DNA from: Escherichia coli
GTDB taxonomy: Bacteria > Pseudomonadota > Gammaproteobacteria > Enterobacterales > Enterobacteriaceae
Length of the DNA: 64,000 nucleotides
Assembly: GCF_003790525.1 (NCBI RefSeq)
Contig: NZ_CP033633.1
Direction: 5' to 3' (one strand)
The translations under genes were made by a program, and so were the position numbers. Below are positions 9,115 through 56,403 of the stretch, one piece after another (position 1 is the stretch's first letter; each line of letters opens with the position of its first letter). Below the pieces are notes generated by a model. The model did not search any database, was not told the DNA's origin, and saw only the letters and a program-made list of their open reading frames with translations.

Positions 9115-10473
9115 ATGAAAAGAAAAATTATTCCTGTGCTAATCGGTTGTACGCTCTCTTTCTCTGCCCTGGCGGCACAACCTACGGCTGAGCGCTATGT
9201 CGTCAGTTTTCCAGAAGGCACGCACGTGAACTACGCCGGCGCATTTGCTAGTGCATTCCCGAACGGCCTTCCGGTTGGGATAGGTTCTGGCCTGCTGTTC
9301 ACCGGTAAACAGGGCGATGCCCTGACATTCGCAACCATTACCGATCGCGGTCCGAACGCGGATTCACCGAAAGAGGGGAAAAACGAAACTAAAATTTTCG
9401 TTACGCCAGATTTCGCGCCGCTGCTGATGACGATTCGTGTACAAAACGGCAAAGCGGAGGCCATCGATCCCCGTCCTCTGCATGACGATAAAGGCGCGAT
9501 CAACGGTCTGCCGCTGGCAAGTGACGTGATTGGATCCACCAATGAAGTGGCCTTCAGCGACACGTTACATAGACTGAAGGGGGATAATCGCGGGCTGGAT
9601 ACGGAAGGGATCACTCCGGATGGTAAAGGAGGTTACTGGCTGTGCGATGAGTATGGCCCGTTCCTGATTAACATCGACAGTAAAGGGAAAATCCTGGCAA
9701 TCCACGGTCCGCAGGCGGCGGAAGGGGAAAAAGTGATTGCGGGCGGTTTGCCAAATATCCTCAAATGGCGTCAGGCGAACCGCGGCTTTGAAGGCCTCAC
9801 CCGTATGCCGGACGGGCGTATTATTGCCGCCGTGCAAAGTACGCTGGATATCGACGCTAAGAGCAAGGAAAAGGCGCTGTTTACGCGTCTGGTGAGCTTC
9901 GATCCGGCAAGCGGAAAAACCGCGATGTACGGTTATCCTATCGACAGCGCGGCCTACAGCAAAAACAGCGACGCTAAAATCGGAGACATCGTGGCGCTCG
10001 ATAACCAGCGCATCCTGCTGATCGAACAGGGAAGAGATAAAAACAACAGAATGCGTAACCTGATTTACGAGGTCGATCTCAATAAGGCGAGCGACCTGTC
10101 AGGCTTCGACAAGCCGGGTGAGTATCCGGAGTTTGATGATGAGAAAACCCTGTCACAGCGAGGCATTACCCTTGCGCAGAAAACGCAGGTTGTTGATCTG
10201 CGCTCCTTGGGCTGGCAGCAGGAGAAGGCTGAAGGGTTGGCGCTGATCGACAGCAAAACGCTGGCGGTGGCGAACGATAACGACTTTGGCGTGAAGGTGG
10301 CGATGCAACATCCGGTTGAGGGCAAGACATTCAAGGATTATCGGGTGAACGCGGAAGGAAAGCTGACGCTTGACGACAAGCAGGTTGAAACGACCCTCAG
10401 AGTGAAGCCACTGGAGAAACCGGAGTCTGACAGTGAACTGTGGATTGTGACGCTGCCGGAAGCGTTGAAATAA
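9115..10473 (+). CDS. secreted protein, phytase-like esterase family (tentative)
   Basis: Signal peptide MKRKIIPVLIGCTLSFSALAA; 452 aa; family assignment from memory of conserved blocks only. Confidence 0.5.
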   Translation: MKRKIIPVLIGCTLSFSALAAQPTAERYVVSFPEGTHVNYAGAFASAFPNGLPVGIGSGLLFTGKQGDALTFATITDRGPNADSPKEGKNETKIFVTPDFAPLLMTIRVQNGKAEAIDPRPLHDDKGAINGLPLASDVIGSTNEVAFSDTLHRLKGDNRGLDTEGITPDGKGGYWLCDEYGPFLINIDSKGKILAIHGPQAAEGEKVIAGGLPNILKWRQANRGFEGLTRMPDGRIIAAVQSTLDIDAKSKEKALFTRLVSFDPASGKTAMYGYPIDSAAYSKNSDAKIGDIVALDNQRILLIEQGRDKNNRMRNLIYEVDLNKASDLSGFDKPGEYPEFDDEKTLSQRGITLAQKTQVVDLRSLGWQQEKAEGLALIDSKTLAVANDNDFGVKVAMQHPVEGKTFKDYRVNAEGKLTLDDKQVETTLRVKPLEKPESDSELWIVTLPEALK

Positions 10474-30915: not shown

Positions 30916-31725
30916 ATGTCAGGCTCCGTTATACACAGCCAGTCTGCAGCCATGGTACCGGCAGTGTATTCTGCCGGACAGTCTGCACAACTTCCTGTTG
31001 CCATTGATTATCCGGCAGCTCTGGCACTCCGCCAGATGTCGATGGTTCATGATGAACTGCCGAAATATCTGCTGGCTCCCGAGGTGAGTGCCCTGCTTCA
31101 TTATGTCCCGGATCTGCGCCGCAAGATGCTGCTGGCCACTCTGTGGAACACCGGCGCGCGTATTAATGAAGCACTAGCGCTGACGCGGGGGGATTTTTCG
31201 CTCACGCCTCCGTATCCGTTTGTGCAGCTGGCCACTCTGAAGCAGCGGACAGAAAAAGCCGCCAGGAGGGCAGGAAGGATGCCCGCCGGTCAGCAGACTC
31301 ACCGTCTGGTTCCGCTCTCCGACGCCTGGTACGTCAGCCAGCTGCAGACGATGGTGGCCACACTGAAAATCCCCATGGAACGGCGTAATAAACGAACAGG
31401 CAGGACAGAGAAAGCGCGGATCTGGGAAGTGACGGACAGAACGGTCAGGACCTGGATTGGGGAGGCGGTTGCCGCCGCTGCTGCTGACGGTGTGACGTTC
31501 TCTGTTCCGGTCACACCACATACGTTCCGCCATTCCTATGCGATGCACATGCTGTATGCCGGTATACCGCTGAAAGTTCTGCAAAGCCTGATGGGACATA
31601 AGTCCATCAGTTCAACGGAAGTCTACACGAAGGTTTTTGCGCTGGATGTGGCTGCCCGGCACCGGGTGCAGTTTGCGATGCCTGAGTCCGATGCGGTCAC
31701 AATGCTGAAAAACAGACATGTATAA
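30916..31725 (+). CDS. resD: ResD tyrosine site-specific recombinase (multimer resolvase)
   Basis: 269-aa ORF directly after ccdB as in F; C-terminal HxxR...Y catalytic region (HTFRHSYAMHMLYAG...STEVYTKV). Confidence 0.8.
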   Translation: MSGSVIHSQSAAMVPAVYSAGQSAQLPVAIDYPAALALRQMSMVHDELPKYLLAPEVSALLHYVPDLRRKMLLATLWNTGARINEALALTRGDFSLTPPYPFVQLATLKQRTEKAARRAGRMPAGQQTHRLVPLSDAWYVSQLQTMVATLKIPMERRNKRTGRTEKARIWEVTDRTVRTWIGEAVAAAAADGVTFSVPVTPHTFRHSYAMHMLYAGIPLKVLQSLMGHKSISSTEVYTKVFALDVAARHRVQFAMPESDAVTMLKNRHV

Positions 31726-31862
31726 TAAGTCACAATTATGAATTGTGATTTCTTCTATAAAAAAGAGACCACTGCAATATGTGATCTCTTGTATTATTTC
31801 ATAATTGGGTGATGCTGCCAACTTACTGATTTAGTGTATGATGGTGTTTTTGAGGTGCTCCA

Positions 31863-33482: not shown

Positions 33483-33669
33483 TCAATTAAAATTAAATAC
33501 TGTACATATAACCACTGGTTTTATGTACAGATCAAAAATTACGCCGCTGTGTTTTCTCTGTCAAGACTGTGGATTTCAATTTTTGTGAAAACGATCAAAA
33601 AACAGGCACTCACACCACGTGCTATTCTCGCCTGATACCACAAAAAACTGCACAAGCATTACTGGTCAG

Positions 33670-34129
33670 GACGGCAGGAAGAATGCCCGCCGGCCAGCAG
33701 ACTCACCGGCTGGTTCCGCTCTCGGACTCCTGGTACGTCAGCCAGCTGCAGACGATAGTGGCCACACTGAAAATCCCCATGGAACGGCGTAATAAACGAA
33801 CAGGCAGGACAGAGAAAGCGCGGATCTGGGAAGTGACGGACAGAACGGTCAGTACCTGGATTGGGGAAGCGGTTGCCGCCGCTGCCGCTGATGGTGTGAC
33901 GTTCTCTGCCCCGGTCACGCCACATACGTTCCGCCATTCCTATACGATGCACATGCTGTATGCCGGTATACCGCTGAAGGTCCTGCAGAGCCTGATGGGG
34001 CATAAGTCCATCAGCTCAACGGAAGTCTACACGAAGGTGTTTGCGCTGGATGTGGCTGCCCGGCACCGGGTGCAGTTTTCGATGCCTGAGTCCGATGCGG
34101 TCACAATGCTGAAAAACAGACACGCATAA
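33670..34129 (+). pseudogene. partial second copy of resD (3' ~60%), diverged
   Basis: Translation TAGRMPAGQQTHRLVPLSD...HTFRHSYTMHMLYAG... collinear with resD residues ~115-269. Confidence 0.7.
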
Positions 34130-34265
34130 TTCATAAATCATAATTATGAATTGTGATTTATTCTGTAAAAAAGAGACCACTGCAATATGTGATCTCTTGT
34201 ATGCAAGGGGGCTTAAACAGTATGAATTCACAAGTGTGATTTCATAAGTAATAACTTTTTGATTA

Positions 34266-40931: not shown

Positions 40932-41351
40932 ATGTACTGTACTGTTAAAGAAATTATCCGCGAAGTGCTGGATACAGACGTGCCGGACAGTGAATGCGTT
41001 TTTGCTGTGGTGCTGACCCGTGGGGATGTACGTCACATAGCCCAGGACTGGAGTCTGACAGACGATGAGCTGGAAACCGTCATGCAGCGGCTGGACGATG
41101 CCTTTGAGCATGGTGCTGATGTCAGCATTGTTCACGACGTTGTTCGTGAACTGATGGAGGAAAAGCGCGTAAACCGTCTTGTAACAGTCCCTGCGGTGCT
41201 GCTGGAAAAAGTGATGGTGATGGCTGGTAGTGAAATTTATCGCCTCCATGCTGTAGGGAGCGAGAACGGGGGCGACGGTGACGCATTTGTCAGGGAAGAA
41301 CGTGAGATTATGCGGTTGATGCGTCAGGCGCTGGACGGGGAGAACGGGTAA
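40932..41351 (+). CDS. hypothetical acidic leading-region protein
   Basis: 139-aa ORF co-oriented with neighbours. Confidence 0.5.
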   Translation: MYCTVKEIIREVLDTDVPDSECVFAVVLTRGDVRHIAQDWSLTDDELETVMQRLDDAFEHGADVSIVHDVVRELMEEKRVNRLVTVPAVLLEKVMVMAGSEIYRLHAVGSENGGDGDAFVREEREIMRLMRQALDGENG

Positions 41352-41542
41352 TGAATATCAGCACAGAAACCCGCGAAATTCTGCGCAATTACAAAGCCGT
41401 GATTAATGCACGACGTCGTGAGATGGGGCAGAAACCGCTCACCACCGCGCAGATTGTTGATGAAATCTGCGATTTTGTGGCAAATCAGCAGGCTGTTTTC
41501 CTCGGCGGTCACTACATCCTTCAGGGCAGCAGAAACAGGTGA
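41351..41542 (+). CDS. hypothetical small protein
   Basis: 63-aa ORF, start overlaps previous stop. Confidence 0.35.
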   Translation: MNISTETREILRNYKAVINARRREMGQKPLTTAQIVDEICDFVANQQAVFLGGHYILQGSRNR

Positions 41543-41744
41543 TACAGGGCAGGCGGTGGAGGCCGCCTGTCAGCCCGCGCGAAAACCCCTGGCAGGCTGA
41601 CGCCTGCCGGAAACGCGGGGTGCAGCGCCTGCGGCGCTGCCGGCCCGGCTTTCCGGTCAGAAGGTAGTGTATGGCTGTATGCCAGGAACAGGTGTGATAT
41701 TCCGTGACGCTGTCACCGTTTCTGGCTGTTTTTTGTTGCGCCCA

Positions 41745-42300
41745 CTTCGGCTCCCGGCTGCCTGGCGGCATCCGGTCGTCAGGCCCGACTCCGACAGGCA
41801 GCTGCTGGCGCACCCGCCAGTCTCCGCCGAACCCGCTGGCGCGGTTTCGGGCTGTCGCTACGGTCCGATGCGTGAAAACCCGGGCTTGCAGCGACCGTTC
41901 CGGTCGCGCCGCCTCTGTCGCGCCGTGACCTGCGCTCCCTGCACACCTGACGGTGTGTGAGGAAACTGCGCCTGATGGCGCAGCAGTCTTCCCTCCTGCC
42001 GCCACCTCTGCGGCCTGTTTCCCGCTGTGGACTTTCCGGGGGGCAGACGTAACCCCCTCCCGTTCCATCTGTCCAGGGTGAGATGCACCGGCCACAAAAT
42101 TTTTAGCCATGAACCCGGCTAAAAATTTTGCGTCCGCCCCCGGACAGCTGTCCCGTGAGGCGGTAAACGGGCCCCCATCGGAAAGGTCCACTGCGGGGAG
42201 AAACCCCTGTGAAGTGGACGGCAGGAGGAGCTTTCGCTCCTCTGAAGGGGCACATGAACGTCCCGTCGCCGGTATCCGGTTTATCTCACATCTTTCAGTC
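41745..42300 (+). repeat. structured non-coding repeat, family B copy 1 (ssi/Frpo-like candidate) upstream of ssb
   Basis: ~555 bp GC-rich, many internal palindromes; paralogous to 48098-48640 and 51470-51850. Confidence 0.6.
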
Positions 42301-43193: not shown

Positions 43194-45151
43194 ATGTCAG
43201 TTACAGAGTCTAAGACAAAAACGGAGCGTAAATCCAGCCGTAAACCTGCAAAAACGCAGGAAACTGCACTGTCTGCCCTGCTGGCGCAGACGGAGGAAGT
43301 GAGCGTGCCGCTGGATTCACTGATTAAATCACCGCTGAATGTGCGCACGGTGCCGTATTCTGCGGAGTCCGTCAGTGAACTGGCTGATTCCATTAAGGGA
43401 GTCGGCCTGCTGCAGAATCTGGTTGTTCATGCCCTGCCAGGTGACCGTTACGGTGTCGCCGCAGGTGGTCGCCGACTGGCAGCACTCAACATGCTGGCAG
43501 AGCGTGACATCATTCAGGCTGACTGGCCTGTCCGCGTGAAAATTATTCCGCAGGAGCTGGCGACGGCTGCATCGATGACCGAGAACGGTCATCGTCGGGA
43601 TATGCACCCTGCCGAACAGATTGCCGGATTCCGCGCAATGGCGCAGGAAGGCAAAACACCTGCGCAAATCGGTGATTTGCTGGGCTATTCACCCCGCCAT
43701 GTCCAGCGAATGCTGAAACTGGCTGACCTTGCGCCTGTCATCCTCGATGCGCTGGCAGAAGACCGCATCACCACCGAACACTGTCAGGCGCTGGCGCTGG
43801 AGAACGACACCGCGCGTCAGGTGCAGGTGTTTGAAGCCGCCTGCCAGTCAGGATGGGGTGGAAAACCGGATGTGCGGGTTATCCGCAACCTGATTACGGA
43901 AAGTGAAGTGGCGGTGAAGGACAACACTAAATTTCGCTTTGTGGGGGCTGATGCTTTCTCGCCTGACGAACTGCGCACCGATTTGTTCAGCGATGACGGG
44001 GACGGTTATGTCGACCGCGTGGCGCTCGATGCCGCCCTGCTGGAAAAACTCCAGGTTGTTGCAGAGTCCCTTCGGGAAGCAGAAGGCTGGGAATGGTGCG
44101 CCGGGCGCATGGAGCCAGTCGGTGAGTGCCGTGAGGATGCCGGAACATACCGCTGTCTGCCGGAGCCGGAAGCGGTGCTGACGGAGGCGGAAGAAGAACG
44201 CCTGAACGAACTGATGACGCGTTACGACGCGCTGGAAAACCAGTGTGAGGAATCCGACCTGCTGGAAGCAGAAATGAAGCTGATGCGCTGCATGGCGAAG
44301 GTCAGAGCGTGGACGCCGGAGATACGTGCCGGAAGCGGTGTGGTGGTGTCCTGGCGTTATGGCAACGTATGTGTCCAGCGTGGTGTGCAGTTGCGCAGTG
44401 AAGATGACGCGACTGACGACGCTGACCGCACGGAACAGGTGCAGGAGAAAGCGTCAGTGGAGGAAATCAGTCTGCCACTGCTGACGAAAATGTCTTCCGA
44501 ACGCACGCTGGCAGTCCAGGCGGCACTGATGCAGCAACCGGACAAATCCCTGACACTGCTGGCATGGACGCTCTGCCTGAATGTGTTTGGCAGCGGAGCG
44601 TACAGTAAACCAGCACAAATCAGCCTGGAATGTAAACATTATTCGCTGACCAGCGATGCGCCGTCAGGGAAGGAAGGTGCCGCATTCATGGCGCTGATGG
44701 CAGAAAAAGCCCGTCTTGCGGCCCTGTACCGGAGGGATGGTCACGGGACATGACGACATTCCTTTCACTCAGTCAGGAGGTGCTGTTATCCCTGCTCAGT
44801 TTCTGCACCGCGTGCAGCATCCACGGCGTTCAGACCCGCGAGTGTGGTCACACGTCACGCAGCCCGCTGGACACGCTGGAGAGCGCCATCGGTTTTCACA
44901 TGCGCGACTGGTGGCAGCCGACAAAAGCAAACTTCTTCGGACACCTGAAAAAGCCGCAGATTATCGCAGCCCTGAATGAGGCAGGACTGTCCGGTGCCGC
45001 ACGGGACGCGGAGAAGATGAAGAAAGGCGATGCGGCTGAACATGCAGAGTTCCATATGAAAGACAACCGCTGGGTGCCTGGCTGGATGTGTGCACCACGT
45101 CCACAGACGGATACCACTGAACGCACTGATAACCTGGCTGATGCCGCCTGA
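43194..45151 (+). pseudogene. ParB-like nuclease-domain protein (leading-region ParB/YubM-like) split by a frameshift near 44750
   Basis: ORFs 43194-44753 (519 aa, ParB/Srx-like motif ...VAAGGRRLAAL...) and 44750-45151 (133 aa) together span the ~650 aa expected. Confidence 0.65.
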
Positions 45152-47414: not shown

Positions 47415-47915
47415 ATGTCTGTTGTTGCACCTGCTGTATACGTTGGAACCTGGCACAAATACAACTGCGGAAGCATCGCCGGACGCTGGTTTGACCTGAC
47501 CACGTTTGATGATGAACGCGATTTTTTCGCCGCCTGCCGTGCCCTTCACCAGGATGAAACCGATCCGGAACTGATGTTTCAGGATTATGAGGGATTCCCG
47601 GGGAATATGGCCTCTGAATGTCATATCAACTGGGCCTGGGTTGAAGGCTTCCGCCGGGCGCGGGATGAAGGCTGCGAAGAGGCTTATCGTCTCTGGGTGG
47701 ATGATACCGGTGAGACGGATTTTGACACCTTCCGCGATGCCTGGTGGGGCGAGGCTGACAGTGAGGAGGCTTTTGCGGTTGAGTTCGCCAGTGATACCGG
47801 CCTGCTGGCTGGCGTGCCGGAGACGGTGGCGCTCTATTTTGACTATGAGGCGTATGCGCGGGATTTATTCCTGGACTCCTTCACCTTTATTGACGGTCAT
47901 GTGTTCCGTCGGTGA
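47415..47915 (+). CDS. ardA: ArdA antirestriction protein (DNA mimic)
   Basis: 166 aa from ATG 47415: MSVVAPAVYVGTWHKYNCGSIAGRWFDLTTFDDERDFFAACRALHQDE...; highly acidic. Confidence 0.85.
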   Translation: MSVVAPAVYVGTWHKYNCGSIAGRWFDLTTFDDERDFFAACRALHQDETDPELMFQDYEGFPGNMASECHINWAWVEGFRRARDEGCEEAYRLWVDDTGETDFDTFRDAWWGEADSEEAFAVEFASDTGLLAGVPETVALYFDYEAYARDLFLDSFTFIDGHVFRR

Positions 47916-48097
47916 TTTACTCCCCCGCTCCGGCGGGGGTATGGCCTGCCGGGCCGCCGGAAAACCCTGGCAGGCTTACGCCTGCCTGAAATGCAGGAGG
48001 GCCGCGCCTGCGGCGCTGCCCTTCCTGCCCGTCATGGTGTGAGGCATTTTTCTGTTATGTCGTTTCTGTTGTTCTGATTTCCGGAGGCGGGGACACC

Positions 48098-48640
48098 CTT
48101 CGGCTCCCGGCTGCCTGGCGGCATCCGGTCGTCAGGCCCGACTCCGACAGGCAGCTGCTGGCGCACCCGCCAGTCTCCGCCGAACCCGCTGGCGCGGTTT
48201 CGGGCTGCCGCTACGGTCCGATGTCTGAAAAACCAGGCCTGCAGCGACCGTTCCGGTCGCGCCGCCCCTGTCGCGCCGGAAACGGCGCTCCCTGCACACC
48301 TGACGGTGTGTAAGGCCACTGCGCCTGATGGCGCAGTTGTCTGCCCTTCCGCCGCCACCCCTGCGGCCTGTTTCCCGCTGTGGACTTTCCGGGGGCTGAA
48401 GCGGCCACAACACGTTTCAGCCGTCCAGGGGAGAGATGTACCAGCCACAAAACTTTTTGCCGCAGGCGTCAAAAACTTTTGCGTCTGCCCCCGGACAACT
48501 GCCCCGTGCCGTGGCAGTCGCTGCCCCATCGGAAAGGTCCACTGCGGGGAGAAACCCCGAAGAAGTGGACGGCAGAAGGGGCTTTCGCCCCTCCGGGGAA
48601 TAACCGGTCGGCCCGGCGACCTGATTCAGCAGAAGGAGAC
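48098..48640 (+). repeat. structured non-coding repeat, family B copy 2
   Basis: Paralogue of 41745-42300. Confidence 0.6.
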
Positions 48641-48646
48641 GTTTTC

Positions 48647-49081
48647 ATGACAGTCAGCAGCACGATTTCCGTTTTTTGCCGAGACGGGGTGTTCCGTACC
48701 GTTTACTGCCACCTGCACGGTGAGCCGACCTGGAACGGTCGCATCCTGCATACCCACTATGCCACCGGTCAGCTGGCCGAAGCCCTGGTTGAACACGGAG
48801 ATATCCGTTGCCTCGGTCCCCGTTGCGACAAACCCGCCGGGCATACGCTTCAGAACCCGGTGGACGGTGTGACGGCTTATTACGGACGTGACAGTGGTTT
48901 CCGGATGGACAGTGAAGCGCGTGAGTACCGCTCTTTCAGGGAGGCTATTGCCACTGAAAGCACAGAAGAGGTGCGCTTCCATTATGTGTTCATCGACGGC
49001 TACTGGAAGGTGATGTACCGCACGCCGGAAGGCTGGAAGATGAAAGCGCTCGCGCTGGCACTGCGTCGCTGTCCGGAATGA
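48647..49081 (+). CDS. hypothetical leading-region protein (Cys/His-containing)
   Basis: 144 aa from ATG 48647 (MTVSSTISVFCRDGVFRTVYCHLHGEPTWNGR...); SD aggaga 9 nt upstream. Confidence 0.55.
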   Translation: MTVSSTISVFCRDGVFRTVYCHLHGEPTWNGRILHTHYATGQLAEALVEHGDIRCLGPRCDKPAGHTLQNPVDGVTAYYGRDSGFRMDSEAREYRSFREAIATESTEEVRFHYVFIDGYWKVMYRTPEGWKMKALALALRRCPE

Positions 49082-49173
49082 AAAAAAGCAGGGCGATAAA
49101 CCCTGCCTTTCTCCGCCGGCGCTTCCCCGTACGGAAGTCCGGCATCTCATTCACTAACTATGGAGATTATGCT

Positions 49174-49440
49174 ATGAGGCCATCAATTATCTTCGCAACC
49201 GCCGAGTATGTAAAGCGTCTGCGTGAAGAGTGCCGGCGGGAGAACAAACCCCTGCACCGCCATACCCGCTTCAGACGCCAGGAACTGGCACCGGATGAGA
49301 TTAACCCGGACGTCCTGGCGATGGGCGGTCATATCGCCAGACGCTGCAGTGAGCGGAAGCGGGTGCGTATCCCCGCCATGAAAGTCAGCGAATGGGGCCA
49401 CCTGCTCCGCGCGCTTGAAATTGAGCGGGTCTGCCACTGA
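49174..49440 (+). CDS. hypothetical basic small protein
   Basis: 88 aa from ATG 49174 (MRPSIIFATAEYVKRLREE...); SD ggaga upstream. Confidence 0.45.
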   Translation: MRPSIIFATAEYVKRLREECRRENKPLHRHTRFRRQELAPDEINPDVLAMGGHIARRCSERKRVRIPAMKVSEWGHLLRALEIERVCH

Positions 49441-49504
49441 TTAACCCTTGCCGTCTGCCTGTGCAGGCGGCAGGATACGTTCAGACATCTCACCAGGAGG
49501 AACC

Positions 49505-50467
49505 GTGAGTAAGAAGAAAACCACCACGACGCCCACGCCGCATGATGCCGCGTTCCGGTCGTTCCTGGCGAACCCCGACGTCGCCAGAGATTTTCTGGAA
49601 CTGCATCTTCCGGCGGAGTACCGGCAGTTGTGCGACCTGTCCACGCTGAAGCTGGAACCCGCCACCTTTGTTGAGCCGGACCTGCATCAGTACGCCAGCG
49701 ATATCCTCTGGAGTGTGAAAACCACCGGGGGTGAAGACGGCTATATTTATACGCTCATCGAGCACCAGAGCACCGAAAATCTGTACATGCCTTTCCGCAT
49801 GTTACGTTACAGTGTGGCGGCGATGCAGAGACATCTGGAGCAGCACAAAACATTGCCACTGGTGATTCCGGTGCTGTTCTATCATGGTGAGCGCAGCCCG
49901 TACCCGTACAGCATGAACTGGCTGGACTGTTTTGAGGATCCGGCGCTTGCGGCTAAAATATACACAAAGCCGTTTCCGCTGGTTGATATCACTGTCGTTG
50001 ATGACAATGAAATCATGAACCATCGCCGGATGGCCGCACTGACGCTGCTGATGAAGCATATCCGCCATCGTGACATGATGGAGCTGCTGGACAAACTCCC
50101 GCAGGTCATGGTGGAAATTTCAGACGAGCAGGTGCGTGTTCTGATTCATTACATCGTTAACGCAGGGGACTCTGTATCACCGGAATTTATGCGGGCGCTG
50201 GCTGAGCGTCTGCCGCAGCATGAGGATAAACTGATGACTATTGCCGAACGTCTTGAGCAGCAAGGAATACAGAAAGGAATACAGCAGGGAATACAGCAGG
50301 GAATACAGCAGGGAATACAGCAGGGAATACAGCAGGGAATACAGAAAGGCCGCATGGAGGAGAAGCAGGATATTGCGCGTCAGCTTCAGAAAACGGGAAT
50401 GCCATCTGCACAAATCTGTCAGATCACCGGACTTTCCGAAGCTGAACTGAAGAACATCACTCACTGA
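49505..50467 (+). CDS. Rpn-family (YhgA-like, PD-(D/E)XK) recombination-promoting nuclease with repeat-containing C-terminal tail
   Basis: GTG start with SD caggagga; N-terminal HDAAFRSFL...DFLELHLP...IEHQS...FRMLRYS motifs; C-terminal GIQ[QK] x7 repeat then conserved tail. Confidence 0.75.
   Translation: MSKKKTTTTPTPHDAAFRSFLANPDVARDFLELHLPAEYRQLCDLSTLKLEPATFVEPDLHQYASDILWSVKTTGGEDGYIYTLIEHQSTENLYMPFRMLRYSVAAMQRHLEQHKTLPLVIPVLFYHGERSPYPYSMNWLDCFEDPALAAKIYTKPFPLVDITVVDDNEIMNHRRMAALTLLMKHIRHRDMMELLDKLPQVMVEISDEQVRVLIHYIVNAGDSVSPEFMRALAERLPQHEDKLMTIAERLEQQGIQKGIQQGIQQGIQQGIQQGIQQGIQKGRMEEKQDIARQLQKTGMPSAQICQITGLSEAELKNITH
50234..50467 (+). CDS. putative intragenic small ORF (RpnS-like) from an internal in-frame SD+ATG within the Rpn gene
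   Basis: gagga-N7-ATG at 50234; product MTIAERLEQQ(GIQx)n...TGLSEAELKNITH parallels the two stand-alone downstream cassettes. Confidence 0.4.
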   Translation: MTIAERLEQQGIQKGIQQGIQQGIQQGIQQGIQQGIQKGRMEEKQDIARQLQKTGMPSAQICQITGLSEAELKNITH

Positions 50468-50475
50468 TGAGAACC

Positions 50476-50506
50476 ACAAAGCCCGGCAAAATGCCGGGTT
50501 TTTTTG
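50476..50506 (+). terminator. hairpin + T-run after the Rpn gene
   Basis: aagcccggcaaaatgccgggttttttt. Confidence 0.6.
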
Positions 50507-50529
50507 TCAGCAGGAGCAGAGCAAACAGT

Positions 50530-50703
50530 ATGACGATTGCAGAACGTCTTGAGCAAAAAGGTCGCCAGGAGGGCAGGATGGAAGGTGCGCTTGAAAAAGC
50601 CCTGGCTATTGCGTGCCAGCTTCAGAAAATGGGGATGACGCCGGAGCAGATTAAGCAGGCTACCGGACTGTCCGAAGCTGAACTGAAAAAAATCATTCAC
50701 TGA
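50530..50703 (+). CDS. stand-alone Rpn C-terminal-tail paralogue (orphan RpnS-like cassette 1)
   Basis: 57 aa MTIAERLEQKGRQEGRMEGALEKALAIACQLQKMGMTPEQIKQATGLSEAELKKIIH; own SD and ATG. Confidence 0.5.
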   Translation: MTIAERLEQKGRQEGRMEGALEKALAIACQLQKMGMTPEQIKQATGLSEAELKKIIH

Positions 50704-50714
50704 TGAGAGCATCA

Positions 50715-50743
50715 CAGCCCGGAAGAATGCCGGGCTTTTTTGC
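50715..50743 (+). terminator. hairpin + T-run after cassette 1
   Basis: cagcccggaagaatgccgggctttttt. Confidence 0.6.
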
Positions 50744-50761
50744 CAGCAGGGGCAGAGCAGT

Positions 50762-50992
50762 ATGACTATTGCAGAACGTCTTATACAGAAAGGTTTCGAC
50801 GAAGGTTTTAAAGAAAGTTTTAAAGAAAGTTTTAAAGAAGGCTTTAAAGAAGGCTTTAAAGAAGGGGCGCTTGAAGTGGCGCGGGAAATAGCCTGCCGGC
50901 TGCGGGATATAGGCTGGCCGCCGGAACGGATTCAGGAGGTCACGGGACTTTCCGGTGAAGAACTGAAAAAGCTGTTTCCTGATGAGCAGTAG
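50762..50992 (+). CDS. stand-alone Rpn C-terminal-tail paralogue (orphan RpnS-like cassette 2) with FKE[SG] repeats
   Basis: 76 aa MTIAERLIQKGFDEGFKESFKESFKEGFKEGFKEGALEVAREIACRLRDIGWPPERIQEVTGLSGEELKKLFPDEQ. Confidence 0.5.
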   Translation: MTIAERLIQKGFDEGFKESFKESFKEGFKEGFKEGALEVAREIACRLRDIGWPPERIQEVTGLSGEELKKLFPDEQ

Positions 50993-51022
50993 CCTGGCAT
51001 TCAGCCAGGCTGTGAATCATGC

Positions 51023-51274
51023 TCACACATCCTCTGCCGTTTCCCCCAGTTCATTTTCCAGACGCCTGATGATATCTGCCTTACGCATCCCCTGCATGTG
51101 AGGCAGCAGGTCACGGACTGAAAGAGCCTGGGTGGTCCTCCAGACGGTGACGTCCACCTGTTCCGCATTTTCCCAGGCGTGCCATGTTCTCTGCGTCACG
51201 CCAAATTCTCTGGCCGCTTTTTCGCGTGACCAGAGCATGCTTTTTCGCCAGATTCGCAGTTCCCAGCCGGTCAT
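51023..51274 (-). CDS. small putative DNA-binding regulator (HTH-like), antisense to the leading-region block
   Basis: 83-aa ORF; promoter-side intergenic region carries GTGAA-N5-TTCAC palindromes. Confidence 0.4.
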   Translation of the reverse strand: MTGWELRIWRKSMLWSREKAAREFGVTQRTWHAWENAEQVDVTVWRTTQALSVRDLLPHMQGMRKADIIRRLENELGETAEDV

Positions 51275-51291
51275 AAAACACCTTTGAAAAA

Positions 51292-51374
51292 GTGAAAAAA
51301 CTTCACTTTATTTTATCACCATAATTGCCAAATCAGCGCGATAAATAAGTGTGAAAAAAGTGAAGAAATTTCAC
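51292..51374. promoter_or_regulatory. two 15-bp palindromes GTGAA-N5-TTCAC (51292-51306, 51360-51374): candidate operator pair
   Basis: gtgaaaaaacttcac and gtgaagaaatttcac, plus extra GTGAA half-site at 51351. Confidence 0.45.
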
Positions 51375-51469
51375 TTTTTTTGGTTGCAGATGTCGTGCGG
51401 TTTTCTCTGTTTTCACCTGTGCGGGAGTGGTGCGCCAGTGACCACAGCATGCCGTTGTTGTGCCGTCGG

Positions 51470-51850
51470 TTTTCTCCGGTCGCGCCGGATGCGGCGCTCC
51501 CTGCACACCTGACGGTGTGTAAGGCCACTGCGCCTGATGGCGCAGCTGTCTCTGCCTGTCTGCCGCCGCACTGCGGCCCGTTCTCCGCAGACGAACTTTC
51601 CGGGGGTACATACACGACCACATCCCGTTTCAGTCGTCCAGGGGAGAGATGTACCAGCCACAAAACTTTTTGCCGCAGGCGTCAAAAACTTTTGCGTCTG
51701 CCCCCGGACAACTGCCCCGTGACGTGGTGAGCGTCCCCCGTCGGAAAGGTCCACTGCGGGGAAATCCCCGAAGACCCGGACGGCAGAAGGAGCTTCGCTC
51801 CTCCGGGAAATGACCTGGCTGACCCGGCAGTCGTGACGATGAGGAGACAA
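51470..51850 (+). repeat. structured non-coding repeat, family B copy 3 (5'-truncated)
   Basis: Collinear with the 3' ~380 bp of 48098-48640. Confidence 0.55.
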
Positions 51851-51854
51851 TGTG

Positions 51855-52703
51855 ATGAATCAGACTTTACCCACTGCTGACCTGAATACTGCCGGCACGA
51901 CAGATGTTATTCCGTCTGTGGCTATCGACCGCATCATCGCGCAGCGTAACGAAGGTATTGCACTGTTCATGCAGGCGATGGAATGCCTGGCGACAGCGCG
52001 CAGGATTCTGCTCGATGCGTCAGGTGATATTTTTCTTTACGGGTTTGAAGACTGCGTGACTGATTCCGTTCGTCGCATGGATAAACCGGAAGAAGCGAAA
52101 AGGAATATCACCCGTCTTGCCGACCGGAAAATCTGGGACCGCCTGATGACAGATACGGGCATGTACACCTTCATGAGTTCATGCCAGCGTGATGAGTGGA
52201 ACAGCCAGCTGATGAGCGACACCTGTCCTGAAATCATCCTGGACAATGTACTGGCAACATTCCGCCATCTGAATGCCAGCAAAATGCAGACATTTGAACA
52301 GGGACTGATTGATGTCTACCGGAAATTGTCATGGGATTACAGAACCAATAATCCCTGCCGTCTGGGCAAGAGAATCATTATTGAAAACCTGCTGTACCGC
52401 TGGAGTAACGGGCGTGTGACGCTGGACTGCAGCGGGCGGGAGGCACTGGATGACCTGGTACGTCCGTTTTATCTGCTGGATGGGCGCAACATTCCTGACT
52501 TCCGGAGCAGCATCGGGGCGCAGTATGGTGAATTTCTCGGGAACGGCGACAATGTCGGTAAGCTGTTAGAAGGGGAATATTTTACGGTGCGTGGCTACCA
52601 GAAAGGGACCGTACACATTGTCTTTAAGCGTTCTGACCTTGTTGAAAAACTGAATGATATTATTGCACGGCATTATCCTGGTGCATTGCCGCCACGAGTC
52701 TGA
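51855..52703 (+). CDS. hypothetical leading-region protein
   Basis: 282 aa from ATG 51855 (MNQTLPTADLNTAGT...); SD gaggag 8 nt upstream; last co-oriented gene before the oriT region. Confidence 0.55.
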   Translation: MNQTLPTADLNTAGTTDVIPSVAIDRIIAQRNEGIALFMQAMECLATARRILLDASGDIFLYGFEDCVTDSVRRMDKPEEAKRNITRLADRKIWDRLMTDTGMYTFMSSCQRDEWNSQLMSDTCPEIILDNVLATFRHLNASKMQTFEQGLIDVYRKLSWDYRTNNPCRLGKRIIIENLLYRWSNGRVTLDCSGREALDDLVRPFYLLDGRNIPDFRSSIGAQYGEFLGNGDNVGKLLEGEYFTVRGYQKGTVHIVFKRSDLVEKLNDIIARHYPGALPPRV

Positions 52704-52788
52704 TTAAACAGAAAAGCCCTGGTATTTATGCCGGGGCTTTTTTTTCTGTAATCATCATAATCTCAGAACATGATGTGACATTGTCACA

Positions 52789-53124
52789 TCAATTGTTGTT
52801 CATATCGATGCCATCTTTTCTGCCTGAATCTGTCTTTTTAGGTGCTGTTTTAGAGGAAGAACGGCGGGATGGTTTTTTCGATTCTGCTTCCCGAATAATG
52901 TCACGAAGTGCCTTCTCTCCTACTTCATACCCTGCATTTTTGAGCGTGTCACGAACATCTGCCAGTGTATAACCCTTTGTCCTTACCAGGACAATGATGT
53001 CATCACGAATGGCATCAAGAAAATCACGCAATGTTTTCCGTTGAGCGGTGAGGTCCGGCAATTCCGATAAGGCAGATTTTGCCAGCTGGATGTCATCATC
53101 TGAGTAAAATTTTTTAGAAGCCAT
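52789..53124 (-). CDS. hypothetical protein adjacent to oriT (basic C-terminal tail)
   Basis: 111 aa from ATG 53124 (MASKKFYSDDDIQLAKS...); SD ggagag upstream on minus strand. Confidence 0.45.
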   Translation of the reverse strand: MASKKFYSDDDIQLAKSALSELPDLTAQRKTLRDFLDAIRDDIIVLVRTKGYTLADVRDTLKNAGYEVGEKALRDIIREAESKKPSRRSSSKTAPKKTDSGRKDGIDMNNN

Positions 53125-53139
53125 TAGCACTTTCTCTCC

Positions 53140-53350
53140 GTTTCATGTTGAAGTCTGATTTTATCATCAAAAACTGACTCCTGGCAGGGCTGCGCCCTGC
53201 CTCTGCCGTCTGCATAAGACTATGATGCACAAAAATAACAGGCTATAATGGCCTGAAAAACGGGACAGGATGTGTAATCGTATAACCGCGCACGCACGGC
53301 TATACGATTACCACCTGGTCAGGGCTTTGCCCCGACACCCTGGTAAGGAG
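53140..53350. promoter_or_regulatory. candidate origin of transfer (oriT) with inverted repeats, upstream of nikA-like gene
   Basis: IR GGCAGGGC-TGC-GCCCTGCC (53183-53201) and perfect 11-bp IR GTAATCGTATA-N14-TATACGATTAC (53273-53308). Confidence 0.4.
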
Positions 53351-53356
53351 CAGACC

Positions 53357-53689
53357 ATGAGTGAGAAGAAAAACCGAAGTGGTAGTGAGAAACGGCAAAA
53401 GAATGTCCTCATTGCTGTTCGTTTTTCACCAGAAGAGGCTGATATTGTTAAAGAAAAGGCAGAAAAAAACGGACTGACAGTTTCAACTCTGATAAGAAAA
53501 ACTGTGCTGGGAAAACAGATAAATGCCCGCATTGACGAAGATTTTTTGAAAGAGCTGATGCGTCTTGGTCGCCTGCAGAAGCATCTGTTTGTGGAAGGAA
53601 AACGCACGGGAGATAAAGAGTATGCAGAGGTTCTCGTTGCTATTACAGAACTTGCTAATACTCTGCGAAGAGATTTAATGGGACGCTGA
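53357..53689 (+). CDS. nikA: relaxosome accessory protein (NikA/MbeC-like ribbon-helix-helix)
   Basis: 110 aa; MSEKKNRSGSEKRQKNVLIAVRFSPEEADIVKEKAEKNGLTVSTLIRK...; immediately precedes the relaxase. Confidence 0.65.
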   Translation: MSEKKNRSGSEKRQKNVLIAVRFSPEEADIVKEKAEKNGLTVSTLIRKTVLGKQINARIDEDFLKELMRLGRLQKHLFVEGKRTGDKEYAEVLVAITELANTLRRDLMGR

Positions 53690-53700
53690 GATAATCGCTG

Positions 53701-56403
53701 ATGAATGCCATCATTCCGAAAAAAAGACGCGACGGAAAGTCTTCTTTTGAAGACCTGATTGCGTACACCTCAGTGCGGGATGATGTGCCGGAAGATGAAC
53801 TCAGGCCAGACACGGAAATGAAAGCTGAGATTCCGCACCGGAACCGCTTCAGACGTCTTGTTGATTATGCAACACGTCTGCGTAATGAAAAATTTGTTTC
53901 CCTGATTGATGTGATGAAAGACGGCAGTCAGTGGGTGAATTTCTATGGTGTGACCTGCTTTCATAACTGTTTGTCTCTTGAATCTGCGGCTGAAGAAATG
54001 CAGAAAGCAGCAGACCTTGCTCATTTTTCCAAAGATGATACAGATCCTGTTTTTCACTATATTCTCTCCTGGCCTGCGCACGAAAGTCCGCGTTCTGAGC
54101 AGCTTTTTGACTGTGTGCGTCACACCCTGAAATCCCTTGAGCTGTCAAAACATCAGTATGTGGCAGCCGTTCATACAGACACGGATAACCTGCATGTACA
54201 TGTTGCAGTGAATCGTGTCCACCCTGAAACCGGCTATATCAATTGCCTTCCGTGGAGCCAGGAAAAACTCAGCCGTGCATGTCGTGAACTTGAACTTAAG
54301 CACGGATTCGCGCCTGATAATGGCTGCTTTGTGCATGCACCCGGCAACCGTATTGTGCGCAAAACAGCGCTGGTACGTGAGCGCCGTAATGCCTGGCGAC
54401 GCGGGAAAAAGCAGACGTTCAGGGAATATATTGCGCAGATGTCGATTGCCGGGCTGCGTGAAGAGCCCGCACAGGACTGGTTATCTTTGCATAAACGGCT
54501 GGCCAGTGATGGTCTGTATATCACGATGCAGGAAGGGGAACTGGTGGTGAAGGATGGCTGGGACAGAGCGCGGGAAGGTGTTGCACTCAGTTCGTTCGGA
54601 CCGTCATGGACAGCTGAAAAACTGGGGCGGAAACTGGGGGAATATCAGCCTGTACCGACAGATATTTTCAGTCAGGTGGGGGCACCCGGTCGTTATGATC
54701 CGGAAGCCATTAACGTGGATATCCGGCCGGAAAAAGTGGCAGAAACGGAGAGTCTGAAACAGTACGCCTGTCGTCACTTTGCTGAACGCTTACCGAAAAT
54801 GGCGCGAAATGGTGAACTGAAAAGTTGCCTGGCTGTACACCGTACTCTGGCAGAGGCGGGATTATGGATGGGGATTCAGCACGGGCATCTGGTACTGCAT
54901 GATGGATTTGAACCACAGCAGACGCCGGTTCGTGCAGACAGTATATGGCCGTTGTTAACGCTGGAAAATATCAGAAAACTGAATGGCGGCTGGCAGTCTG
55001 TACCGAAGGATATTTTTACTCAGGTTGTACCACAAAGTCGCTTTAGTGGGCATCGAATGGATATGCATCCGGTCAGTGATCATGAATGGCACAGAATGAG
55101 AACAGGGGCTGGCCCACAGGGGGCAATTAAGCGGGAGATTTTCTCTGACAAAGAGAGTCTGTGGGGATATGCAGTCAGCCATTGTGCCCGTGATATTCAG
55201 TACATGATCTCTGAAGGGCGCTTTAGCTGGCAGAACTGCCATGAACTGTTTGCCCGCAGTGGACTGATGTTACAGAAACTGCATCATGGTCTTGTGATTG
55301 TGGATGCGTTTAATCATGACCAGACACCGGTTAAAGCCAGCAGCATTCATCCGGATTTGACTTTGTCCAGAGCAGAGCCGCAGGCCGGGCCATTTGAAAT
55401 TGCAGCGGCGGATATTTTCGATCGGGTGAAGCCTGAAAGCCGTTATAACCCTGATATGGCTGTCAGTGACAGTAAGGAACCCGGGTTTAAACGGGATCCT
55501 GAATTGCGCCGCCGTCGTCGTGAAACCCGTGCAGCTGCGCGGGAAGATTTACGTGCGCGTTACCTTGCATGGAAGGAGCACTGGCGTAAACCCGATTTAC
55601 GTTACGGCGAACGGTTACGGGAAGTTCATGCTGCCTGCCGCCGGCGCAAGGCGCATATCCGCGTACAGTTCAGGGATCCGCAAGTGCGTAAGCTGCATTA
55701 CCATATTGCGGAAGTGCAGCGAATGCAGGCGCTGATCAGGCTGAAGGAAAGCGTCAGGGAAGAGCGACTGTCGCTGATGGCGGAAGGTAAGTGGTACCCG
55801 CTGTCTTACAGGCAGTGGGTGGAGCAGATGGCGGTTCAGGGGGATTCTGCTGCTGTATCTCAGTTACGTGGATGGAATTATCGCGACAGAAGGAATGATG
55901 AGGTGCTTTTAACCACGCCTCAACGCTGTGTGGTTCTTTGTGAACCAGGCTCCACCCCGATTCACAGGGATATCGGTGGCATGGTGGCGACTTTGCAGCG
56001 TAATGGCAGTGTGCGTTTCCGTGATGCGACAACAGGAGAGTACGTCTGTACAGATTATGGTGATCGCGTTGTTTTCAGCAACAGTGCCGATAACAAAACA
56101 CTGAAGAAAAGGATGGTCAGGGTGTCCAGTGTGCTTTTTGCAAGGGATCCCCGAATGGGGTTTGAGCCGGAAGGTCAGGATGCACAATTTAACCGTATGT
56201 TTGCTGATATGGTTGCGTGGAAAAACGTGCAGCGGGATGAGCGTAAGGGGCACTACAGGATAAGTCGTTCTGATGTTGATCAACTGAGGGTCAGTAGTGA
56301 AAAACGTTTTCGTGATTATCTTAAAGGGCGTGATACTGAATCACACACTTACCATCATGCAACGGATGAAAATAAGTGGGAGCCGCCATCACCGGGGATG
56401 TAA
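53701..56403 (+). CDS. nikB: MOBP-type conjugative relaxase (NikB-like)
   Basis: 900 aa; relaxase His-triad motif AAVHTDTDNLHVHVAVNRV in N-terminal domain; size and context match IncI1 NikB. Confidence 0.75.
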   Translation: MNAIIPKKRRDGKSSFEDLIAYTSVRDDVPEDELRPDTEMKAEIPHRNRFRRLVDYATRLRNEKFVSLIDVMKDGSQWVNFYGVTCFHNCLSLESAAEEMQKAADLAHFSKDDTDPVFHYILSWPAHESPRSEQLFDCVRHTLKSLELSKHQYVAAVHTDTDNLHVHVAVNRVHPETGYINCLPWSQEKLSRACRELELKHGFAPDNGCFVHAPGNRIVRKTALVRERRNAWRRGKKQTFREYIAQMSIAGLREEPAQDWLSLHKRLASDGLYITMQEGELVVKDGWDRAREGVALSSFGPSWTAEKLGRKLGEYQPVPTDIFSQVGAPGRYDPEAINVDIRPEKVAETESLKQYACRHFAERLPKMARNGELKSCLAVHRTLAEAGLWMGIQHGHLVLHDGFEPQQTPVRADSIWPLLTLENIRKLNGGWQSVPKDIFTQVVPQSRFSGHRMDMHPVSDHEWHRMRTGAGPQGAIKREIFSDKESLWGYAVSHCARDIQYMISEGRFSWQNCHELFARSGLMLQKLHHGLVIVDAFNHDQTPVKASSIHPDLTLSRAEPQAGPFEIAAADIFDRVKPESRYNPDMAVSDSKEPGFKRDPELRRRRRETRAAAREDLRARYLAWKEHWRKPDLRYGERLREVHAACRRRKAHIRVQFRDPQVRKLHYHIAEVQRMQALIRLKESVREERLSLMAEGKWYPLSYRQWVEQMAVQGDSAAVSQLRGWNYRDRRNDEVLLTTPQRCVVLCEPGSTPIHRDIGGMVATLQRNGSVRFRDATTGEYVCTDYGDRVVFSNSADNKTLKKRMVRVSSVLFARDPRMGFEPEGQDAQFNRMFADMVAWKNVQRDERKGHYRISRSDVDQLRVSSEKRFRDYLKGRDTESHTYHHATDENKWEPPSPGM

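Follow-up and report, generated by a model that had tools for sequence, protein, structure and literature searches.

Which gene of a conjugative plasmid can be read first once its DNA enters a new host, and what might its product do there? This question is raised by a gene of 282 codons plus stop (51855-52703, + strand) in a 64-kb stretch of Escherichia coli DNA, referred to below as the window. A preliminary description, made from the sequence alone, had put this gene down as unknown, lying behind the third copy of a repeated element and next to oriT. The gene encodes a member of the DUF4942 family and is a homologue of Hp22 of plasmid pESBL, also known as YgfB or YdiA. Related proteins in phages and on some plasmids carry the same domain joined to the catalytic core of a DNA adenine methyltransferase, a core without a target-recognition domain. 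We propose, tentatively and with somewhat less than an even chance of being right, that the DUF4942 protein may be an early-expressed, non-catalytic DNA-targeting module that aids plasmid establishment or counters restriction.

The open reading frame (ORF) listed at this locus spans 51852-52703 on the + strand and opens at GTG, and the in-frame ATG at 51855 yields a product of 282 aa, which is the length of the RefSeq coding sequence (849 nt) in near-identical plasmids. The Shine-Dalgarno sequence GAGGAG, read at 51841-51846 (+), stands 8 nt ahead of this ATG. Thus, the ORF and its place are confirmed as first described, in coordinates, strand and ribosome-binding site alike. The protein matches the Pfam hidden Markov model (HMM) PF13708 (DUF4942) with an E-value of 1.8e-50 and a score of 171.7, over model positions 5-189 of 190 and residues 90-275; it also matches PHROG 38825 (E 9e-25). 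Its homologues number in the thousands, range from 98-100% down to 26% identity and align end to end, and 3087 representative clusters at 50% identity match it. Because of the Pfam match and the full-length homologues down to 26% identity, we conclude that the ORF is a real, conserved gene. The ratio of non-synonymous to synonymous substitution rates against near-identical copies is 0.23-0.50, a value derived from only 7-8 differences and thus uninformative. Relative to the DUF4942 genes of IncI1, IncK and IncB/O plasmids, the window protein is full-length, of the same length and 98-100% identical, i.e., a plain member of the family, and RefSeq annotates it as 'DUF4942 domain-containing protein' in plasmids of that identity.

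In a catalogue of 72,556 plasmids, the family is present on at least 5000. Conjugative plasmids make up 92% of these carriers, which include the IncI1, IncK and pOXA-48-type resistance plasmids (the pOXA-48 member is 51% identical). The window allele itself is found in 1340 of 5426 complete E. coli genomes, nearly always on plasmids. The context of DUF4942 genes is always a mobile element, in which they stand beside ssb, klcA, RadC, primase or SprT-like genes or an integrase. In Supplementary Table 1 of Samuel and Burstein (Nature 2024), DUF4942 is leading-region family 24, with 2171 members (false discovery rate p = 0), a median position of 1 from oriT and T-strand orientation; a second DUF4942 family, number 76, has 551 members. 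The window gene is likewise first from oriT and in T-strand orientation. The description of the gene as unknown therefore has to be qualified, since its family had a name and had been reported to be over-represented in leading regions. Both the gene and its privileged position were known from this literature and from RefSeq, and they are not a discovery of ours. In the literature searched, we found no mention of 'PF13708', nor of 'ydiA' together with 'leading region'.

In an alignment of 59 sequences of 26-51% identity, the window protein included, residues D90, W94, G150, D200, L201, H254 and N267 are invariant. An AlphaFold2 model built from these sequences (predicted local distance difference test score 88.7, predicted template modelling score 0.79) consists of about 18 disordered residues at the N-terminus, a helical half (21-158) and a small alpha/beta domain (173-273). 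Searches of the PDB sequences with the single query and with the 59-sequence profile gave no match below E 0.28. Foldseek against AFDB50 returned only DUF4942 family members among the 50 matches listed, and no structural relative was found in the PDB or in the AlphaFold sample. At this depth of search, the predicted fold is an orphan, which is new here. Of the HMM and structure-based searches that the preliminary description had called for, the first thus led to the Pfam family, but the second to no match outside it. An NCBIfam search assigned the protein to no family, and neither Pfam nor NCBIfam gave a profile match to ArdA or KlcA (ArdB). No known catalytic motif or family is matched, and the original remark that no catalytic motif is recognisable thus holds; judged by its sequence, the protein is not an enzyme of any recognisable class. 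PADLOC gave only a 35-residue match to its '2TM effector' model (E 0.0018), which we judged spurious, so that a known defence component was rejected.

Transferred strand and upstream hairpin

The oriT core was read from the sequence at 53265-53314 on the minus strand. It consists of an inverted repeat (53277-53314) and, beyond it, the nick consensus ACATCCTG followed by T after the nick, which occupies 53273-53265 and places the nick between 53266 and 53265. We take this consensus to be that of the MOBP (RP4/R64-type) nick region. Because it is found on the minus strand, this strand must be the one that is transferred, entering 5' first and running towards lower coordinates, and it is therefore the template of the + strand DUF4942 gene. 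This gene starts 1.4 kb from the nick and its stop codon lies at a distance of 0.56 kb, in agreement with the earlier suggestion that it would be among the first genes to enter a recipient. Between it and oriT lies a yggA-like gene of 113 aa (52789-53130, minus strand). That is, the DUF4942 gene is the last + strand gene before oriT, but not, as had been stated, the last gene of the leading region. The yggA-like gene is coded on the transferred strand itself and would therefore be unreadable until the complementary strand is made. Read in this way, the sequence makes the DUF4942 gene the first that is expressible from the entering single strand, the most privileged slot of a conjugative plasmid.

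As described earlier, a repeat of about 370 nt precedes the gene. The copy at 51470-51840 (minus strand) matches two others, at 48267-48617 (86% identity) and 41917-42242 (79%), and no fourth copy was found in the window. The two other copies share a further 160-200 nt upstream (41745-41910 and 48098-48260, 93% identical), which is absent from the copy ahead of the DUF4942 gene; by this comparison, the latter is a shorter version of the element. With nhmmer, a profile of the three copies matches the leading region of an IncF plasmid (OZ026791.1) three times, at E about 1e-23. Two of these matches sit directly upstream of ssb and yubP, which are the positions of Frpo1 and Frpo2, and the third (9588-9945) sits upstream of the ydbA-ydcA operon, which suggests that the methyltransferase encoded by ydcA may also be expressed from single-stranded DNA. 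As a single strand, the copy ahead of the DUF4942 gene folds with -106.5 kcal/mol on the minus strand (z -7.6 against shuffled sequences) and with -91.6 kcal/mol on the plus strand. In the consensus fold of the IncK and IncF copies, a single long hairpin is retained, in which 14 pairs are compensated. About 11 nt of its 3' arm form a conserved bulge that stays unpaired and contains TGGTACATC. On the basis of repeat family, fold and homology, we regard the element as a putative Frpo/ssi-type (class 1) single-strand promoter. An Rfam search of 47500-53600 gave no match, and no sigma-70-like site was found on the + strand in 51000-53400.

Downstream of the gene, between it and the convergent yggA-like gene, an intrinsic terminator was identified at 52712-52745 (+), in which a GC-rich hairpin is followed by eight T. 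Its RNA folds with -25.9 kcal/mol (z -5.75), and it is missing from the list of a simple terminator scan. The DUF4942 gene is thus a one-gene unit made up of hairpin, Shine-Dalgarno sequence, gene and terminator. PMC12672017 describes ssi1-3 of IncI1 plasmids as class 1 promoters of single-stranded DNA related to Frpo. It reports that RNA sequencing of pESBL revealed six induced operons in the leading region, with increases of up to about 500-fold at 15 min. Their start sites were verified by 5' rapid amplification of cDNA ends, and three of the six lie behind ssi1-3. From homology and position, we infer that the DUF4942 gene is zygotically induced from a single-strand promoter in the same manner.

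The surrounding stretch of 2 kb matches 2232 plasmid records, the best matches being IncK2/Z (I-complex) E. coli plasmids at 99.5% identity, and the block of hairpin, DUF4942 gene and yggA is conserved in about 1900 plasmid records. On these grounds, the sequence places the window in the leading region of an IncK2/Z plasmid. In F-like plasmids, the positional counterpart of the DUF4942 gene is yubP (DUF932, ORF273), which is the last + strand gene before oriT, lies behind Frpo2 and is followed by a gene on the opposite strand. We rejected YubP as a homologue of the DUF4942 protein (BLASTP E 0.034); YubP weakly matches TIGR03299/DUF932.

Fusions to a methyltransferase core

Of the 3087 clusters, the best 150 were inspected. 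Four of them, of 467-559 aa, have a C-terminal extension bearing VLEPSAGxG and MNPPF motifs, and Pfam assigns this extension to the class I methyltransferases. Fused relatives of 459-562 aa are found in phages (phiPSA1 gp22, Marinomonas P12026 gp32, MR13, Dolphis, phiA005 and RHph_TM3_3_3) and on plasmids of Methylibium (RPME01 WP_011831692) and Brevundimonas; every phage relative inspected is such a fusion. In these proteins the N-terminal 270 residues are the domain seen in the window protein and share its invariant W, D, H and N, and the fusions have in addition a C-terminal M.TaqI-like domain of 170-190 aa (EPSAGxG, NPPF) that the window protein lacks. In PHROG 32703 the order is reversed, with the methyltransferase preceding DUF4942. 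The closest solved protein to the profile of the extension is M.TaqI (E 3e-13), aligned to the catalytic domain (residues 22-211), and the extension has no counterpart of the C-terminal recognition domain of M.TaqI. This fusion of DUF4942 with an M.TaqI-like catalytic domain devoid of a recognition domain, as profile comparison depicts it, is new here.

In IncF leading regions, this minimal methyltransferase is encoded as a separate protein, YdcA (187 aa). It is also found as a part of giant proteins of phages and plasmids, DarB-like ones included. The DUF4942 domain was not seen in these giant polyvalent proteins, and is joined to this methyltransferase only in two-domain proteins. In the IncF locus examined, YdcA is present and a DUF4942 gene is absent. 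YdbA, encoded upstream of YdcA, was considered as a DUF4942 relative and rejected (hhalign probability 0.1%).

The window protein terminates at the domain end (…ALPPRV). It has neither the SAM-binding motif I (EPxxGxG) nor the catalytic motif IV, (N/D)PP(F/Y), of the gamma-class (M.TaqI-like) N6-adenine DNA methyltransferases, and Pfam finds no methyltransferase domain in it. Since only the fused relatives have these motifs, in their C-terminal extension, UniProt is mistaken in naming stand-alone members 'Methyltransferase'; the label of family 24 in Samuel and Burstein 2024 reads 'Uncharacterized; DUF4942; Methyltransferase'. Nor was a YdcA-like or M.EcoGIX-like gene found in the window. The lack of methyltransferase motifs in the window protein, and of such an enzyme in the window, is likewise new here.

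The gene that overlaps the DUF4942 gene of IncHI2 plasmids was considered as a methyltransferase and rejected, as it encodes a coiled-coil protein. In the related IncK2/Z plasmid p1106-NDM, the leading region contains an M.EcoGIX-type methylase gene (41322-42005) that is absent from the window; the anti-restriction gene set therefore varies among close relatives.

Candidate role of the DUF4942 protein

Since the methyltransferase core of the fusions itself lacks a recognition domain, DUF4942 is most simply read as the module that targets it. We envisage the following sequence of events. The minus strand would enter the recipient 5' first from the nick at about 53265, and the hairpin at 51470-51840, which lies within the first 1.8 kb, would fold on the single strand. 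Host RNA polymerase would then transcribe from the hairpin towards the nick, through the DUF4942 gene and up to the terminator at 52712-52745. This transcription could take place before a complementary strand exists, and the promoter would be lost once the DNA has been converted to the double-stranded form. The protein so produced, among the first to be made in the recipient, might serve as a substrate-binding or targeting module, its likely substrate being DNA or a DNA-bound host complex, and would help the plasmid escape restriction or otherwise establish itself. In its free-standing form it may bind the same substrate as the fused form without modifying it, and thereby occlude or distract restriction complexes, recruit an enzyme or perform another task in establishment. 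For DNA transfer itself, it would be dispensable. Both DNA binding by this protein and its role in anti-restriction or establishment are thus deduced from the company that the domain keeps and from where its gene lies.

Two comparisons with characterised systems bear on this proposal. M.EcoGIX (YfbB/YfeA), found in the leading regions of IncI1 and IncF plasmids, is an orphan adenine methyltransferase specific for single strands. Like the DUF4942 protein, it is encoded in the leading region and dispensable for transfer, in its case unless the recipient restricts; its promoter acts on single-stranded DNA upon entry, as that of the DUF4942 gene would. It differs in being an unrelated beta-class protein (DPPY motif), whereas the window protein contains no methyltransferase domain. 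ArdA and KlcA/ArdB are encoded in the same leading region, are zygotically induced and represent the functional class expected of DUF4942, but they have no sequence, profile or structural similarity to the DUF4942 protein. ArdA is a strongly acidic DNA mimic. The isoelectric point of the window protein is 6.0 and the family median 6.8, so that an acidic DNA mimic was rejected; the protein is not markedly basic either.

Several results weigh against the proposed role. The near-neutral isoelectric point gives no hint of DNA binding or DNA mimicry. The invariant polar D, D, H and N fit an active site or ligand pocket equally well as a DNA surface, and they speak against a targeting domain because target-recognition domains are usually highly variable. 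Instead of forming a working pair, the fused domains could be a 'polyvalent' union of two anti-defence modules that act independently. No M.TaqI-like methyltransferase was found near stand-alone DUF4942 genes among the loci examined, which include those of pOXA-48, IncFIB(K) and IncHI2 plasmids, of metagenomic elements and of a prophage. A simple scan of the transferred strand for -35/-10 hexamers gave no convincing ones in the hairpin, the best match being 7/12. In the literature searched, the name DUF4942 occurs in four papers, and no functional study of any such protein was found. Lastly, transposon sequencing (TnSeq) of pESBL scored Hp22 as 1.00 'non-essential' and 0.00 'required for transfer'. 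The preliminary description had named the lack of a transfer phenotype as a point against its reading, and Hp22 is indeed dispensable, but this result is uninformative because ardA and M.EcoGIX are also dispensable in the same, non-restricting mating. All other leading genes scored like Hp22, M.EcoGIX included, which nonetheless gives up to 1000-fold protection from restriction in restricting recipients. Taken together, the results support the cautious interpretation originally given to this gene.

A more specific form of the proposal, which we consider doubtful though worth stating, is that DUF4942 might be an orphan-fold module that recognises a particular DNA feature, such as single-stranded DNA, a hemimethylated site or a base flipped into the W/D/H/N pocket. 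The free-standing form would then constitute a new class of factors that counter restriction or aid establishment, and the phage form would be the missing target-recognition domain of a minimal M.TaqI-like methyltransferase. If this DNA-recognition reading is true, DUF4942 would be the very first protein that many enterobacterial resistance plasmids make in a new host. Should it counter restriction or aid establishment, it would offer an obvious target against the spread of such plasmids, and a widespread family of phage 'methyltransferases' would be explained as well. In any case, the tie to a methyltransferase without a recognition domain provides a concrete, testable hypothesis on the function of DUF4942.

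Among the alternatives, a role in establishment outside defence is rather unlikely, yet the least unlikely of them. The protein might aid complementary-strand synthesis or reprogramme the host, the latter having been reported recently for the ParB-like YfjB/HerB. Genes of the leading region do not all act against defences: according to PMC13370423, the leading-region protein HerB changes host transcription and reduces the cost of acquisition. The activity of M.EcoGIX is tied to DNA polymerase I, and a methyltransferase-associated domain could therefore dock onto replication proteins. However, direct evidence for such a role is lacking, and the family also occurs in integrase-adjacent prophages and in lytic-type phages, where conjugative strand conversion is irrelevant.

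It is also conceivable, if distinctly unlikely, that DUF4942 is the detached targeting or activating subunit of a split methyltransferase, whose partner, acting in trans, would methylate the entering strand. Candidate partners are a plasmid enzyme of the YdcA or M.EcoGIX type, or host Dam. Consistent with this, the domain is fused in both orders with one specific methyltransferase clade, YdcA stands alone in IncF leading regions behind its own Frpo-like element, and pESBL is protected on entry by M.EcoGIX. The idea is weakened, however, by the absence of YdcA-like and M.EcoGIX-like genes from the window and by the stand-alone loci examined, none of which has an M.TaqI-like methyltransferase near its DUF4942 gene. 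In addition, M.EcoGIX is of a different methyltransferase class (DPPY motif), and the IncF locus examined has YdcA without a DUF4942 gene.

The invariant polar residues would favour an autonomous effector, i.e., an enzyme of new fold or a ligand pocket that might act on nucleic acid or on a host immune signal, or read a modified base, with the methyltransferase fusions joining two independently acting anti-defence modules. We regard this as improbable, given that no known catalytic motif or family is matched and that DUF4942 was not seen in the giant polyvalent proteins that contain the same methyltransferase, occurring with it in two-domain proteins only.

Finally, the protein might be suspected of acting at oriT in the donor, either as an accessory of the relaxosome or as a regulator of transfer, because its gene lies within 600 nt of oriT and because the yggA-like orf35 beside oriT in IncM pCTX-M3 affects mobilisation. 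Such a role is highly improbable, being largely refuted by the TnSeq scores of Hp22 and countered by the occurrence of DUF4942 members in phages, which lack oriT, by the absence of the gene from the conjugation genes named in the text of the pMS7163B report, and by the fact that no double-strand promoter is seen on the + strand in 51000-53400.

Other features of the leading region

The annotated neighbourhood, typical of a leading region, comprises, in order, impCAB-like genes, DUF1281, klcA, DUF1380, ssb, DUF905 and a ParB-like gene. These are followed by psiB, psiA, ardA, an Rpn-family gene, a small helix-turn-helix gene on the minus strand and the DUF4942 gene, and then by the yggA-like gene, oriT, nikA (53357-53689) and nikB (53701-56403). 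In pESBL, the gene next to Hp22 is Hp23, which is annotated 'Protein YggA' and has the same position as the yggA-like gene of the window. Several RefSeq plasmids call the latter 'molybdopterin-guanine dinucleotide biosynthesis protein MobC', which looks like a naming artefact. The function of YggA is unstudied in R64 (PMC6112013).

The ParB-like gene (43194-45151), a homologue of YfjB/HerB, is split into ORFs of 519 aa and 133 aa. Compared with its counterpart in plasmid pE16-3, which is intact (1959 nt), it has lost a single base near 44727 (CCCTGTTACC to CCCTG-TACC); apart from this base, the two genes are 99.95% identical. The loss marks either a pseudogene or an error of sequencing.

In the region of the Rpn-family gene (49448-50992), a 12-nt tandem repeat at 50258-50349 encodes (QGIQ)n. 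After this gene, two small ORFs (50467-50703 and 50762-50992) each repeat the C-terminal tail of the Rpn protein (MTIAERLEQ…GLSEAELKKI); such separate copies of the tail might serve as decoys or antitoxins. Two pairs of direct repeats lie upstream of the leading region, each with its members about 2.4 kb apart: one of 300 nt and 95% identity (31263-31562 and 33667-33966), and the other of 83 nt and 88% identity (31712-31794 and 34120-34202).
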